From an uncultured Candidatus Saccharibacteria bacterium (GTDB lineage Bacteria > Patescibacteriota > Saccharimonadia > UBA4664 > CAZOQX01), in NCBI GenBank assembly GCA_964582465.1, contig CAZOQX010000002.1, forward strand, positions 7,379-71,378: a stretch of DNA of 64,000 bases, read 5' to 3'. A program made the translations under genes and the position numbers. A model generated the notes under the pieces. That model made no database searches and was not told the origin of the DNA. It saw only the letters and a list, made by a program, of their open reading frames with translations. Below, piece after piece: positions 22,721 through 45,017 of the stretch (its first letter is position 1; the number at the start of each line of letters is the position of its first letter).

Positions 22721-23335
22721 ATGGCCAAGCTGCAACCAGTAATTGCCGTTGATATTGATGATGTGCTTGTGCCGCATTATGAGCTAATGACCGAATTTGT
22801 GAATAAGCACCATGGTTACGCGCTGAGGTCGCACGACTTTCAAAACTGGGAGAAATTGCTCCAGCTCACGGGTATTAATCGCGAAGAGTTCGTGGCCCAG
22901 GTGGAGCCTTTTATTCAATCGGAGGATTTCGTGGAGCAGTCTCCAGCGTTTGAGGTCATGGAAGCATTGAGCACGTTGTCTAAGTATTATCGTATAGTCG
23001 CGGTTACTGCCAGGCCGCGTTCGATTGAGCAGCGCACAATCAAATGGATGGCAGAGCATTTCGGAACTTCTATTCCGGAAATTGAGTTTGTTAACCCCAA
23101 CCAGGCGTGGGGTAGGGGTGGGAGCGTATCAAAACTTGAGGTGTGCCTACGCCTAGGGGCGAAATACTTGATAGATGATCATCTCAAACATGCTCAAGAC
23201 GTCGCTGCTGGCGGGATCAAGGTCATACTCTATGGCAATTATCCTTGGAACCAGCTCGATGCCTTACCCGATAATATTTTGCGGGCGCGTGACTGGGGTG
23301 AGGTATTAAAGATTTTGTTGCCCCATGCAGTCTGA
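22721..23335 (+). CDS. HAD-superfamily 5'(3')-deoxyribonucleotidase-like (NT5C family) protein
   Basis: DIDDVL (DxDxV/L) HAD motif I at N-terminus; ATG 22721. Confidence 0.6.
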   Translation: MAKLQPVIAVDIDDVLVPHYELMTEFVNKHHGYALRSHDFQNWEKLLQLTGINREEFVAQVEPFIQSEDFVEQSPAFEVMEALSTLSKYYRIVAVTARPRSIEQRTIKWMAEHFGTSIPEIEFVNPNQAWGRGGSVSKLEVCLRLGAKYLIDDHLKHAQDVAAGGIKVILYGNYPWNQLDALPDNILRARDWGEVLKILLPHAV

Positions 23336-23639
23336 CGAAACATTTCGCGAGGCGGTGTATGAGCTGGTTGCAGCCATCCCGCGGGGGCGGGTAATGACCT
23401 ATGGCCAGATTGCGGCGCTGTGCGGTAGTCCGCGGGCGGCTCGGATCGTCGGCGGCATTGCTCATTTCGGGCCAACCGGTTTGCCCTGGCAGCGCGTGGT
23501 ACATAAAGATGGGTTGCTCGCGAGTGGCTACACGTCCGGCGGCTATGCTGCTCACAGACGCGACCTTGAGGGCGACGGGGTGGAGGTAGACGTCGAATTC
23601 CGTGTCGTGAATCTGGAGAAGCGGATTTGGTGGCCGTGA
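23325..23639 (+). CDS. alkyltransferase-like (ATL) protein: MGMT DNA-binding domain lacking the acceptor cysteine
   Basis: YGQIAALCGSPRAARIVGG...PWQRVV: PCHR active-site Cys replaced by Trp as in ATL/YbaZ. Confidence 0.7.
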   Translation: MQSDETFREAVYELVAAIPRGRVMTYGQIAALCGSPRAARIVGGIAHFGPTGLPWQRVVHKDGLLASGYTSGGYAAHRRDLEGDGVEVDVEFRVVNLEKRIWWP

Positions 23640-31259: not shown

Positions 31260-31672
31260 GGTCCAGATTATTGGATAGCTGCTCGTGTCGAAAGGCGCGA
31301 GAGGAAAGTCCGGACAGCTTAGAGCGTGGTGGTTGCTAACGGCAACCGGGAGTAAATCCCGCGTCGTTTCTCTCGAGAAAACGGTGCCGGGAAGAAGCCT
31401 AGGGAAAGTGCCACAGAAACAATACCGCCTTCGTTTTCGAAGGTAAGGGTGAAAAGATAAGAGGTAAGAGCTCTTAAGTCCTTGTCGGTGACGGCAAGGA
31501 GCGGTAAACCCCACCTGCTGCAAGGAGTCGGCTACCCGAAAGGGCTGGTGCTCGCCAGGCCGGCGTTTGAACCCGCACGACCCTACTGGCAACGGTAGGG
31601 CAAGATAGATAGCTATCCATTTCGCCGTAAAAAGCGGAGGGACAGAATCCGGCTTACAGATAATCTGGACCA
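31260..31672 (+). ncRNA. rnpB: RNase P RNA, bacterial type A
   Basis: Conserved blocks GAGGAAAGTCCGGAC, ACAGAAAC, GGTAAACCCCACC, ACAGAATCCGGCTTAC; P1 formed by GGTCCAGATTAT / ATAATCTGGACC; ends +-5 nt. Confidence 0.85.
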
Positions 31673-37160: not shown

Positions 37161-37445
37161 ATGGCAAAAACTCGCAATAAAAAGAAGCACAAGGGGCAGC
37201 ACAAACGGCGTGATCACAACCGTCCGGTTGCTGCGCCTAGCTCAGTTTCTCCGCCGGTGGCGGCAGCCGTGGCAGAGCCGCCCAGAGAAGTGCAGACACC
37301 CGAACCGGCCACAGTATCCACGAGCGATTTTTATTATGTGCGCAGCGAAGTAAGGCGGATTGGGTTGTTAGCGTTATTATTTGTTGGGCTGGAAGTCGGA
37401 TTCTGGATAGTTGCTCACTTAACTTCTCTAGGCTCTAAACTCTAG
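37161..37445 (+). CDS. small basic/membrane hypothetical protein
   Basis: Lys-rich N-terminus, one TM helix; weak RBS. Confidence 0.3.
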   Translation: MAKTRNKKKHKGQHKRRDHNRPVAAPSSVSPPVAAAVAEPPREVQTPEPATVSTSDFYYVRSEVRRIGLLALLFVGLEVGFWIVAHLTSLGSKL

Positions 37446-38934: not shown

Positions 38935-39051
38935 GGTTTTCTCCTGTTGCCGGCTATTTTAACCGAACACAAACCGTACAGTCAAGCATGAGAGTAATAT
39001 TGTTGTCAGTGATTATTTACAAACTCACAAACTCTTGGTATAGTTAACGCC

Positions 39052-39834
39052 ATGGAAGATAGTGTCGTTCAAAGCTTAGAAGAATTAGGCTTAAGCGAGA
39101 AGGAAGCCAAAGTTTATATGGCAGCTCTGGCGCTTGGGCCTTCGCCGGTACAGAAAATTGCCGATGCAGCCGGCATTAAGCGCGTCACCACTTATGTAAT
39201 TTTGGAATCGCTCACAAATTTGGGCCTCGCCAGTCAGTCCACTCGGGGGAAAAAGACTTACTTCGTGGCTGAAGATCCTATTAGCTTGCGCCGATTGGTC
39301 AAAAAGAAGGAGCAAGAACTGGATGATCAAAAGCAAAACCTGGAGAATATTCTGCCGGCCCTGACAAAACTCAAAAGTCGACCCAAGGAAGTGCCGCAAG
39401 TGCAATTTTATGATAGCGTCGAGGGTATTCGCTCCATCATGGCCTCATTTATTGAGCTCCGGAAGCAGAAAGACGTTAAGAAGCTTTACGGAATTAGTAA
39501 TTTAGATCAGCTCTACAGCTTCTTTCCCGATATGGAGGGAGGGGCAAATCCGGAGCGGATGAAGAGCGGCCTGGCCAGCGAGTTTATCTACACCTATAGC
39601 GGTGGGCCGACACTGAAGGATTCAGACAAGCAGTCGAAGCGCATTTCTAGGTTTGTGCCGCCCGACGTTTTTAGTATTAATGGGGATATTTCTATTTTGG
39701 GCGACAGTGTGGCAATCTTGGCCCTAGGCGGTCAGCGACCGGTTGGTATCACCATCAAGAGCGCCGAGATCTCCAAGGCCATGAAGGCCTTATTCGACTT
39801 GGCTTGGGAAGCCGCGGCCAAATTCAACCAGTAA
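39052..39834 (+). CDS. TrmB-family transcriptional regulator
   Basis: LGLSEKEAKVYMAALALGPSPVQKIADAAGIKRVTTYVILESL wHTH. Confidence 0.65.
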   Translation: MEDSVVQSLEELGLSEKEAKVYMAALALGPSPVQKIADAAGIKRVTTYVILESLTNLGLASQSTRGKKTYFVAEDPISLRRLVKKKEQELDDQKQNLENILPALTKLKSRPKEVPQVQFYDSVEGIRSIMASFIELRKQKDVKKLYGISNLDQLYSFFPDMEGGANPERMKSGLASEFIYTYSGGPTLKDSDKQSKRISRFVPPDVFSINGDISILGDSVAILALGGQRPVGITIKSAEISKAMKALFDLAWEAAAKFNQ

Positions 39835-39863
39835 ACCGGTTTTGCTAGTTATAATTTACACTA

Positions 39864-39893
39864 TTGACGTAAGAGGCATCGTTAGGTATACTG
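39864..39893 (+). promoter_or_regulatory. strong sigma70-like promoter (TTGACG - 17 nt - TATACT)
   Basis: Near-consensus -35 and -10 with 17-nt spacer, read directly. Confidence 0.5.
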
Positions 39894-39899
39894 AGCGCA

Positions 39900-40262
39900 C
39901 TTGTTCAGGTCACCCAGCACCTTTCTTCTGCTAGATCCCCCTGTCCACGTGCGTCTCGCGAACTTCCCCTAGAGACGATCGTTTGTATCAACCGGACTTC
40001 GCGGTGCGAATCGCGCCCCGTGCGGCCCATCGGACGCCAGGAAAGGGGGATAATGAAGAATGGTCCAGTGATCAGAACAGCGAGACCGCGTCACCGCCGG
40101 AACTGGCGATCCGGCGCATGGCGCACACGGTCTCATCGGAGTTGATGCGGGAGGGCGACCCACGGTGTTGATCGGCTACGCCGATCTGAGGGGCCGGCCG
40201 CCCCACACCACGCCCCCCGCATCTCTCCGGACCCCAACTAGCGCTTAACGGGCGCCTTTTTT
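39900..40262 (+). other. GC-rich transcribed unit of unknown nature (candidate ncRNA, or Arg-rich 30-codon micro-ORF at 40053-40145), ending in terminator
   Basis: Bounded by promoter above and GCGC-hairpin plus T6 run at 40240-40266; contains AAAGGGGGATAATG micro-ORF; composition differs sharply from flanks. Confidence 0.3.
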
Positions 40263-40270
40263 ATTTCAAA

Positions 40271-41284
40271 CTAAGCTTTACCCTGATACCACAAGGCGGC
40301 ATATTCTGGGAACACTGCGTTTATAATCATACCGGTTGAGAATTCAAAACCAGCCCGGGGTGTCTTTGGTACTGGTTCTAGCCGCAACATGAAGTGGTGG
40401 TCCAGGCCTAGCGCCGGCTCCTGTAGGTAATAGTTATAGTCGATCTGGGAGTTGTTTAACCGTGAAGTTAGATTCTTAAGTGAGGTCGCGAGGCTCGTGC
40501 GCTCCGCCAGCTGCGCATCTATCAAAGAGGCGAAGTGTCGGCGCGGGATCAGCCAGGCCTCAAAGCGTTTTTTGCTCGCAAATGGGGCAATTATTACCAA
40601 GTTTTTGTCTTCATAAATAATGCGGGCCTTATGCTGAATTTCCCAATCAATAATGTCGCAGACAGGGCAGCGGTCATGCTTCGCGTGATAATCGGCATAG
40701 GCGGCAGCTTCTTGAGCCACCGCCGGAGGAATCATCGGCAAGGCCGAAATCTGGGAGTGCAGATGCGCTCGGCTGGCCCCAGCCTTATGACCGTTGTTAC
40801 GAAAGACGCTGACGTACTTAATTCCGGGGATGGCGGCGAGTACCTTAGTCCGTTGGACGTAGCCTTCGAGTACAGCTTCGATCTGAGCTACCGGTAATTC
40901 GTTAAACTCTACATTGTGCTCCGGCGTATCTAATAAAACTTCTTGTTCACCGAAAGCGTGGGGGTTCGACAGGGTGAGAGAGGGATACTTATTCTTGACG
41001 GCGCGGACTAGCCAGCCACCCTGGCCATCAGGCAAGTCCCAAACTATCGGCTCCATCATATCCTGGCAGTCGCTCGCGTTATGGCGGTGGTCCAGGCCCG
41101 GGTCTTCTTCCTTAAAATCGCGTGGCCTTTGACCACGTTTGGCCGAAAGCAGCACGTAACGCTCTTCATAATAATCTTTGCGGATTTCGGCCTGGGCCGG
41201 TACAGGATCCGCGACGAGAGTTTCAGGCTTAAGTTTAAGCGGTTGACTGTAGGGAGACATAAACCTCACCATTAGCACTTTCAC
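40271..41284 (-). CDS. galT: galactose-1-phosphate uridylyltransferase-like (GalT, HIT superfamily)
   Basis: CPVCD zinc motif and HLHSQI (HxHxQ) active site. Confidence 0.7.
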   Translation of the reverse strand: MKVLMVRFMSPYSQPLKLKPETLVADPVPAQAEIRKDYYEERYVLLSAKRGQRPRDFKEEDPGLDHRHNASDCQDMMEPIVWDLPDGQGGWLVRAVKNKYPSLTLSNPHAFGEQEVLLDTPEHNVEFNELPVAQIEAVLEGYVQRTKVLAAIPGIKYVSVFRNNGHKAGASRAHLHSQISALPMIPPAVAQEAAAYADYHAKHDRCPVCDIIDWEIQHKARIIYEDKNLVIIAPFASKKRFEAWLIPRRHFASLIDAQLAERTSLATSLKNLTSRLNNSQIDYNYYLQEPALGLDHHFMLRLEPVPKTPRAGFEFSTGMIINAVFPEYAALWYQGKA

Positions 41285-44644: not shown

Positions 44645-45017
44645 GGGGCTGACATAGCTTCGACGTGAGTACATTTACAGACTATTTAGCAGGTCGGCTG
44701 GGGGCGTTACCTCCAATCTCAACAACCGAGAACTTTGTAGCTAAGCTGAAGAGCCTTTTCCAGGTTCCTCAAGCCGCTTTTGCCCTAGCTTAAGTCTAGA
44801 GCCATCGGCACCTGACACCAGATAGGGGTCTGCCGGTGCCAATCATCTGGTTGCCTTGCTTCTGCTTGCTCAAGCGCTGTAAGTAAGATATAGAGCTGGA
44901 TCACCGCTTGTTTGTGAGTTTTGCGGACGGTGATTGAGAGGATCAAATCTCACTAAACCTGTAGAATGATAGTTTGTTAGCTTGCGGACCGGGGTGCGAT
45001 TCCCCGCAGCTCCACCA
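44645..45017 (+). ncRNA. ssrA: tmRNA (SsrA)
   Basis: 5' GGGGCTGA..TTCGACG and 3' GGACCGGGGTGCGATTCCCCGCAGCTCCACCA match tmRNA tRNA-like domain; candidate tag ORF ending ...AAFALA-TAA at 44791-44793. Confidence 0.85.

Follow-up and report, generated by a model that had tools for sequence, protein, structure and literature searches.

CreT is the small RNA toxin of CreTA, the CRISPR-regulated toxin-antitoxin modules. CreT of H. hispanica consists of AUG AGA AGA UGA and a stem-loop, and in CreT of P. aeruginosa it is the structure of the hairpin and not its sequence that counts, the hairpin serving the stability of the RNA (PMC8501985; bioRxiv 10.64898/2026.06.02.729485). The leader of vmlR in Bacillus carries a three-codon upstream open reading frame (uORF) that is driven by a Shine-Dalgarno (SD) sequence, lies in a stem-loop and senses ribosomes arrested at initiation; its tripeptide varies (MIN, MDN, MDK, MRK), and it acts through occupancy by the ribosome and not through its product (PMC9226507). 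In the hbs mRNA of B. subtilis, a ribosome held at a strong SD blocks RNase J1 (PMC5737220). Here we describe a candidate RNA gene on the plus strand of a 64-kb stretch of DNA (the window, to which all coordinates refer unless another locus is named) from a member of the Saccharimonadia (Patescibacteria/candidate phyla radiation, CPR), where it fills the gap between a gene for a TrmB-family regulator and a convergent galT gene. We are confident that the gene is real and conserved, and no relevant description of such an RNA from Saccharibacteria or Patescibacteria was found in the literature. Our preferred reading, to which we give somewhat less than an even chance, is that it is an independent gene for an RNA of little or no coding content, whose functional core, as we infer it, would be a translated minigene that is stabilised by hairpins.

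To our knowledge, the small RNAs of CPR bacteria are almost uncharted. Among other bacteria, SgrS/SgrT with SgrR, SR1/SR1P and RNAIII/hld are dual-function small RNAs; such RNAs are stand-alone genes beside a sugar-related transcription factor, with a patchy small open reading frame (ORF) at the 5' end and a varying length. The aprE leader and the cryIIIA STAB-SD are further ribosome-dependent 5' stabilisers, and we know of no need of such stabilisers for a short ORF of fixed length. In the bar minigenes of phage lambda, an SD and an AUG are followed by one or two further codons before the stop, and when they are highly expressed they cause drop-off of peptidyl-tRNA, an effect that depends on the rare AUA codon and on a Pth-deficient host.

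Architecture of the gene and its relatives

The window gene is made up of the following parts, of which the third and fourth are two readings of the same region.

39864-39892, plus strand: sigma-70-type promoter TTGACG-17-TATACT, with boxes at 39864-39869 and 39887-39892
40042-40050, plus strand: SD AAAGGGGGA; a GGAGG-like block is present in 22/22 members
40060-40071, plus strand: three-codon mini-ORF ATG GTC CAG TGA (MVQ*), the family-typical reading, about 10 nt past the GGGGG core of the SD
40053-40145, plus strand: 30-codon Arg-rich ORF MKNGPVIRTARPRHRRNWRSGAWRTRSHRS (MKNG...SHRS), in a frame different from that of the mini-ORF, with its stop at 40143-40145
40241-40262, plus strand: intrinsic terminator, a 6-bp G+C-rich hairpin GCGCTTAACGGGCGC (40241-40255) followed by T6 (40257-40262)

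Relatives of the locus were gathered with an alignment of GalT homologues, by which 113 further loci were fetched; an earlier scan of genome contigs with a single GalT sequence had given no relatives. The gene order ComM - TrmB - gap - GalT (convergent) - MGDG synthase was found to be widely kept across Saccharimonadia, and the TrmB-[gap]-galT layout occurred in about 25 divergent relatives. These gave 22 non-redundant gaps of 166-652 nt, usually richer in G+C than their surroundings; the lineages they come from share no more than 40-65% identity in the flanking proteins. The nearest relative of the window, its sister locus L002, is 56% identical in GalT and 66% in TrmB, and an exact copy of the window locus is present on one Logan contig. 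By blastn and nhmmer, the window RNA showed no similarity to the other gaps, and among the other loci only four small clusters were linked by these searches, the sequence similarity of the gaps being almost nil.

The order of the parts is kept throughout. All 22 gaps hold, on the same strand, a TTGAC(N)-17-TAnnnT promoter 30-60 nt past the TrmB stop, beyond which an initial transcribed GUGCG is common. The leader measures 25-160 nt, has a 5' hairpin in many loci, and ends in a purine-rich GGAGG-like block that stands 3-10 nt before the start codon in 22/22 loci; this codon is ATG in 21/22 and GTG in L035. The frame that opens there is very short (2-8 codons) in 16 loci and 34-48 codons long in 6. 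Next comes a G+C-rich tail, present in 20/22 loci, whose length runs from 0 to about 460 nt, and judged by eye all members end in a G+C-rich hairpin and a T-containing tract beside the galT stop. Two minimal loci, L020 with a gap of 166 nt and L056 with one of 202 nt, hold the promoter, the SD, an ATG with one or two codons and a stop, and the terminator hairpin, with no structured tail.

Exactly one ATG, two codons and a stop were found in 11/22 loci. The three-codon frames of the relatives read MNG, MAL, MVS, MAL, MSQ, MVH, MGN, MGG, MNT and MHR, with TAA, TAG and TGA all in use as stops, and a later addition, L046, reads MAY. As the codons and stops differ between lineages, it is the three-codon length that persists as the sequence changes. 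The gaps hold 90 ATGs, and a three-codon frame opens at 11 only, all of them SD-linked (binomial P 1.7e-5, a conservative value in that the background rate includes those 11). When the pattern of promoter, SD, ATG, N6 and stop was searched in 1.3 Mb of fetched sequence, on both strands and with the whole window included, it gave 15 matches, and 15/15 lay in this gap and on this strand.

In 6/16 of the loci with very short frames (L002, L005, L014, L019, L022 and L023), another ATG lies 0-6 nt past the stop of the mini-ORF or overlaps it, as in TGATG, TAAATG and TAGCATG, which by a rough hand calculation is above chance. Such a second ATG may allow termination-reinitiation into a second short frame, which in L014 and L019 would run to a conserved AUGUAG within the loop of a hairpin.

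In the window itself, transcription would start at about 39899, and the RNA would measure about 365 nt from promoter to terminator, the terminator ending 9 nt short of the stop codon of the convergent galT. A first-pass annotation, made from the letters of the window, had described a near-consensus promoter firing into a G+C-rich segment that ends at a GCGC hairpin plus T6, between a TrmB regulator gene and galT on the opposite strand, and this description held. The promoter matches 10/12 consensus positions, the G+C content of 200-nt segments between 39900 and 40300 is 0.60-0.665 compared to 0.52 for the whole window (the flanks being at the window average), the hairpin and T6 are in place, and both neighbours gave Pfam matches. 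A scan of 2.5 kb yielded five promoter-like sites where 2.1 +/- 1.3 were expected and three terminator-like sites where 2.9 were expected; taken alone, the promoter and terminator matches of the window are within chance, and their significance comes from conservation, the promoter standing in the same place in 22/22 non-redundant homologous gaps. The same scan detected no terminator between the TrmB stop and the RNA promoter, and no minus-strand promoter-like site within 39835-40270.

The 30-codon ORF with a perfect ribosome-binding site that had been singled out in the first-pass annotation is present, and its SD is strong; the SD core stands only 2-3 nt before ATG 40053, whereas ATG 40060 has the more usual spacing of about 10 nt. 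At the place that matches the mini-ORF of the window, L002 reads MNG*. The 30-residue peptide had no counterpart in L002, in the small-protein profile or in Pfam, and this ORF is probably not a conserved gene.

With the covariance models of Rfam 15, the region 39700-40400 gave no match at gathering thresholds, and at E<=10 only three minus-strand noise matches were obtained (E 1.1-5.1, with scores of 14.6-18 bits where the thresholds lie at 45-70). Nor was any Rfam match obtained in the gaps of 20 related loci. Elsewhere in the window the RNase P RNA (31263-31672) and the tmRNA (44645-45017) were matched. The impression that the transcript resembles neither SRP RNA nor 6S RNA was borne out by the Infernal/Rfam scan, and SRP RNA, 6S RNA, tmRNA, RNase P, riboswitches and OLE/ROOL/GOLLD/HEARO/raiA were ruled out, none of them reaching the Rfam gathering threshold.

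The locus had also been taken to lie in foreign-looking DNA, a view that found no support: its synteny is common across Saccharimonadia, its flanks have average G+C, and no similarity to phage or plasmid records was found. The DNA of the window is syntenic, and we read the gene as vertically inherited and Saccharimonadia-specific. In one monophyletic group TrmB and GalT abut (0-20 nt), or TrmB is also gone, which looks like a single loss of the element. The gap of L016 (3916-4799 in that locus, 878 nt, G+C 0.44) is taken up by another, A+T-richer insert, in which a 190-aa ORF lies on the galT strand; near TrmB there may be a degenerate promoter, SD and 9-codon frame.

Six lineages carry a longer frame at the position of the mini-ORF. 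In L010, L044 and L045 it is found as well as in the following three loci, for which the coordinates are their own.

L024, 1157-1750, minus strand: region with a 34-48-codon frame at the mini-ORF position
L052, 2818-3350, minus strand: region with a 34-48-codon frame at the mini-ORF position
L086, 773-1345, minus strand: region with a 34-48-codon frame at the mini-ORF position

The small peptide that these frames would encode is basic, starts with M-x-T-S and has an R-x-V-L-x-R helix. Between L024 and L086, synonymous changes, including TCC/AGC for serine, were seen in the shared MxTSMSDAxFA start, and in this clade the small ORF is probably a real micro-protein. Conservation of the small ORF at the amino-acid level was found only within the L024/L052/L086 clade; homology of the longer small ORFs across clades was not significant (E 0.05-0.65) and is suggestive only. 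The small-protein profile gave no match when it was run against all frames of the mini-ORF loci, and Pfam gave no family match at E<=10 for seven peptides. The small ORFs of some relatives resemble the TFQP and RQVLARR of ribosomal protein L34 (rpmH), an identity that was ruled out by the lack of a Pfam Ribosomal_L34 match in the seven peptides.

Folding of the RNA and variation between strains

The folded parts of the window RNA, as predicted, are given here; MFE stands for minimum free energy.

39901-40080, plus strand: 5' domain, predicted (MFE and centroid) as a long irregular hairpin around the ribosome-binding site and the mini-ORF, in which the region of the mini-ORF is paired with the 5' end
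39926-39946, plus strand: C/U-rich anti-SD arm TTCTGCTAGATCCCCCTGTCC, base-paired to the SD region and to the first ATG
40082-40134, plus strand: G+C-rich hairpin D2, starting 10 nt past the mini-ORF stop (MFE and centroid)
40137-40229, plus strand: branched G+C-rich domain D3, with outer stem CGGAG/CUCCG, inner stem GCGGGAGGGCG/CGCCCCCCGC and two apical hairpins (MFE and centroid)

Compared to dinucleotide shuffles, the members of the family fold with z-scores of -2.4 to -12.9, the mean being -7.2 for the RNA strand and -4.4 for the opposite strand, and in 20/22 loci the RNA strand has the more negative value. The window segment folds much better than shuffled sequence on either strand, with z -5.5 on the plus and -4.9 on the minus strand. 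The extreme and strand-biased values of the family support both selection for structure and the strand that was assigned. No conserved long ORF was present in the tail on either strand, and the tail was shown to be under selection for very stable folding and not for sequence. At the matching relative place, L002 has, by eye, a domain of D3-like topology.

In eight main-clade loci, a helix just past the mini-ORF, CCUGCCAG/CUGGCAGG, covaries and is well supported: 84% of its cells are paired compared to 37-49% in slid controls, as high a value came up in 1/500 shuffles, and 8/13 pairs show double changes. The window's own lineage is without that helix. The two-sequence alignment of the window with L002 was uninformative for covariation, and three-sequence RNAalifold runs on L024/L052/L086 and L009/L035/L040 were noisy, with a covariation term near zero; within-cluster alignments were too shallow for general covariation. 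An alignment of the 5' hairpin was not used for pair counting, as MAFFT misregistered 3/7 sequences. A block that is conserved in a clade-specific way, GCCCAAGAUCGGGAC, was found in L009/L035/L040. No enriched loop motif such as GGA was found in the tails, in which only TGATCG and GTAGCT are weakly enriched.

At the 5' end, several other clades have a local hairpin (UCGG-loop-CCGA), whereas the 5' end of the window RNA is paired only by the predicted long-range helix, and the 5' domain is predicted with no covariation to support it in the window's lineage. The pairing of the anti-SD arm was also recovered as an inverted repeat, I2 (39926-39946 with 40040-40060, 21 nt, 76% complementary), that recurs in the MFE fold. 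The predicted pairing probability in the window is 0.73 for the SD and 0.62 for the AUG. No consistent anti-SD partner was found across the family; the partners vary, and the mean predicted probability of a paired SD is about 0.6.

Near-identical strain pairs (99-99.9% identical) differ preferentially at this locus, their differences clustering in the RNA promoter/small ORF and in TrmB. Between L052 and L053 (99.8% identical), 5/7 mismatches fall in the RNA promoter and the small ORF, three of them non-synonymous, and the 420-nt tail is without change. All six differences between L011 and L012 are in the gap or in TrmB. In L044 and L045 the flanks are 97-99% identical, and the 5' half of the RNA gene has been swapped together with the adjoining 3' part of TrmB for an allele that is divergent (66% identity), a sign that the locus may be subject to recombination or to diversifying selection. 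From this joint variation between strains and from adjacency, we hypothesise that TrmB controls the RNA promoter.

The neighbouring features are as follows.

39016-39044: TrmB promoter, with a palindrome that overlaps its -35 box
39052-39834, plus strand: TrmB-family winged-helix regulator, 260 aa (PF01978), of a size near that of TrmBL2
40271-41284, minus strand: GalT/HIT, galactose-1-phosphate uridylyltransferase-like, convergent (PF01087/PF02744)

The divergent intergenic region between ComM and TrmB, at about 38960-39025, holds two blocks that are strongly conserved across Saccharimonadia. One is a tandem repeat, ACCGAACA-NN-ACCGAACAGTCAAGC, upstream of the TrmB promoter, and the other a palindrome, TGTTGTCA-N5-6-TTATTGACA, over its -35. 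Together they look like a putative operator pair for TrmB autoregulation or control of ComM. An operator shared by the TrmB and RNA promoters was rejected, as these have only the extended -35 (ATTGACT) in common and the TGTTGTCA...TTGACA palindrome is TrmB-specific.

Two further ORFs of the window were noted. A 94-aa ORF at 37161-37445 (plus strand), with a Lys/Arg-rich N terminus and a hydrophobic C terminus, has an 11-nt overlap with the end of ComM; it had no Pfam or NCBIfam match, and in related loci this position is likewise occupied by predicted genes, of 72-97 aa. In a crude gene map, just one other intergenic stretch was rich in G+C (0.63), and it is a 104-aa ORF at 23325-23639 (plus strand), which by eye resembles a methyltransferase-like DNA-binding domain. 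A second G+C-rich RNA island at 23336-23626 was set aside, as it holds this ORF, judged by eye to be coding.

Possible functions and rival explanations

In our preferred reading, ribosomes would load at the SD and make a tripeptide of arbitrary sequence, with termination some 10 nt ahead of a group of stable hairpins. The output would depend on ribosome occupancy, or on futile cycles of initiation and termination, on an abundant nuclease-resistant RNA, and not the peptide, and the RNA would report on, or damp, translation capacity. As the SD and the start are predicted to be partly sequestered by the upstream C/U-rich arm, access to them could be conditional, and the gene might be controlled by the neighbouring TrmB-family regulator.

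Several observations weigh against this reading. The three-codon frame of the window needs the second ATG, the first opening 30 codons, and the sequence cannot separate the two. The codons of the mini-ORF are ordinary (GTC ranks 33/61 and CAG 53/61), so that the known toxic mechanisms of CreT are not predicted; across the 12 loci that were scored the codon ranks run from 8 to 59 of 61, Pro-Pro does not occur, and a repeated codon was found only in L023 (GGC GGC, a common codon). The window and L002 have no detectable similarity to the other clades, and their homology rests on position and architecture. They are also without the covarying helix. Sequestration of the SD across the family is only partial and inconsistent, and a tail of 250-460 nt seems longer than stability requires. 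There is no same-strand downstream gene for an attenuator to control. In the six lineages with frames of 34-48 codons, of which at least one is under coding constraint, the peptide may matter.

The main rival, which we consider unlikely and nevertheless take seriously, places the function in the structured tail, as a trans-acting or protein-sponging small RNA for which the 5' hairpin, SD and mini-ORF would be no more than a ribosome-binding 5' stabiliser that guards against 5'-3' decay, as in hbs. A tail is present in 20/22 loci and folds exceptionally well, with one covarying helix and the clade-specific block GCCCAAGAUCGGGAC; between L052 and L053 it stayed unchanged over 420 nt while the promoter/ORF region took five changes; and ribosomes at a strong SD do block RNase J1 (PMC5737220). 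Its sequence, however, is not conserved between clades and has no enriched loop motif of the GGA type. We favour the minigene over this rival because two tail-less minimal loci, L020 and L056, keep the 5' module, and because the three-codon length is maintained as the codons turn over, where a stabiliser, as far as we know, should need no fixed ORF length. The spacer explanation, by which the gap would be a non-functional filler or the remnant of a decayed gene, G+C-rich by chance, can draw on the very fast divergence of the sequence, the loss of the element in one clade and its highly variable length. We regard it as hardly credible, given that promoter, SD, start codon and terminator are kept in 22/22 lineages despite 40-65% flanking identity, that the z-scores are extreme and strand-biased, and that the position of the stop is held while the codons change; it was also counted against it that the few full-length relatives that were named come from genomes which we take to be small and streamlined.

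The choice offered by the first-pass annotation, a novel small RNA or a basic micro-protein, can be narrowed. The small RNA is supported by the lack of an Rfam match, by positional conservation across the class, by the gene's own promoter and terminator and by the strand-biased fold. A micro-protein is not supported for the window, where the family-typical three-codon ORF starts 7 nt further on than the 30-codon one, where the sister L002 has MNG and a stop, and where the small-protein profile and Pfam were null. We therefore find it improbable that the locus encodes the 30-residue peptide as a small basic protein whose message would carry a long structured 3' untranslated region, in the manner of SgrS/SgrT or SR1/SR1P. 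The 30-codon frame does stand behind a strong SD, and six related loci do have frames of 34-48 codons at the same place, with synonymous changes between L024 and L086; on the other side are the 2-3 nt between ATG 40053 and the SD core, the cross-clade E of 0.05-0.65, and the occurrence of Arg-rich open frames in every frame of the G+C-rich DNA of the window. We give equally little credence to a translation-sensing attenuator, in which stalling at the uORF would lead to read-through of the terminator and so to RNA antisense to galT and MGDG synthase, or to a convergent promoter that interferes with read-through from galT. A variable three-codon uORF in a stem-loop is indeed the design of vmlR, the gene and galT are convergent, with 9 nt between the terminator and the galT stop, and galT, as read from the sequence, has no good minus-strand terminator of its own. 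In most loci, however, the mini-ORF lies 170-450 nt from the terminator; strong terminators of hairpin and T-tract are present in nearly all loci, no antiterminator pairing was identified, and in one clade TrmB and galT abut without the element.

A bolder form of the minigene reading seems to us rather doubtful: a CRISPR-independent chromosomal minigene RNA acting as a CreT-like bacteriostatic switch, which would throttle or sense global translation under the neighbouring TrmB-family regulator. The transcript would be highly expressed and stabilised by hairpins, and all that it yields would be a ribosome that cycles through a three-codon frame. CPR cells are assumed to hold few ribosomes and single-copy tRNA genes. 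If there is such a switch, the strain differences and recombination that cluster in TrmB and the 5' part of the RNA would reflect a repressor and an RNA that co-evolve. Should the minigene prove to be what does the work, the CreT/minigene principle would extend beyond CRISPR loci to the core chromosome of ultra-small bacteria, and it would offer a testable handle on the regulation of translation or dormancy in such cells. Read conservatively, the locus represents a new structured RNA family whose signature (promoter, SD, ATG-N6-stop and G+C-rich hairpins in the TrmB-galT gap) can be used for annotating Saccharimonadia genomes.

Comparison with known systems

A strong ribosome-binding site with a frame of just three codons has so far been known from small RNA toxins and from leaders that sense antibiotics. 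The vmlR leader with its uORF(MIN), to which other ribosome-stalling leaders of ABC-F resistance genes are similar, shares with this gene the SD with a three-codon uORF in a stem-loop, the variable tripeptide and the intrinsic terminator downstream, and in the predicted MFE fold of the window an SD with a very short uORF does lie in a stem-loop. Membership among attenuators of the vmlR type was rejected, as the gene that comes next, galT, is convergent and lies on the minus strand, and the same is true of all related loci. The distance between uORF and terminator also differs, being 170-450 nt here and filled with stable hairpins, and no antiterminator alternative was found.

Dual-function small RNAs are alike in their adjacency to a regulator, in the patchy small ORF and in the variable length of the RNA. 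They differ in orientation, which is tandem here and not divergent, and the gene described here has a three-codon ORF in most lineages and a far more structured tail; no target-pairing seed was identified, though no target prediction was made. For the window, a gene of this kind is not supported, as a small ORF conserved at the amino-acid level was not found. Type I toxin-antitoxin systems were likewise ruled out: the peptides are hydrophilic or basic, or only three residues long, and no minus-strand promoter-like site was found within 39835-40270.

With the stabilisers of hbs and aprE the gene has in common a strong SD and a terminator hairpin that guards the 3' end, and it may share with them a 5'-proximal structure, but those stabilisers protect a downstream protein-coding message. 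The lambda bar minigenes show the same succession of SD, AUG, few codons and stop, and differ in the dependence of their effect on AUA and on a Pth-deficient host.

The closest likeness is to CreT, in the strong promoter, the strong SD, the efficient AUG, the mini-ORF and the stable G+C-rich hairpin. As for membership, the codons do not fit (there is no rare pair such as AGA AGA/AUA AUA and no Pro-Pro) and there is no CRISPR array: no CRISPR-like array was found in the 64-kb window, where Cas genes were not searched individually, and beside the RNA gene there was no creA-like element and no repeat adjoining the promoter. The gene also differs from CreT in its length, about 365 nt compared to about 80 nt, and in being a vertically inherited Saccharimonadia gene at one chromosomal site beside a TrmB regulator. 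The layout of a strong SD and an efficient start codon before a mini-ORF only a few codons long was found in the window and in 16/22 members, and past the mini-ORF of the window stand stable stem-loops, D2 and then D3 with the terminator. The AUG, two codons and stop of the H. hispanica mini-ORF are the very geometry of the window, and as we propose it structure would count over sequence here too, the peptide being irrelevant. The minimal elements L020 and L056, at roughly 80-110 nt, come near to CreT in size as well.

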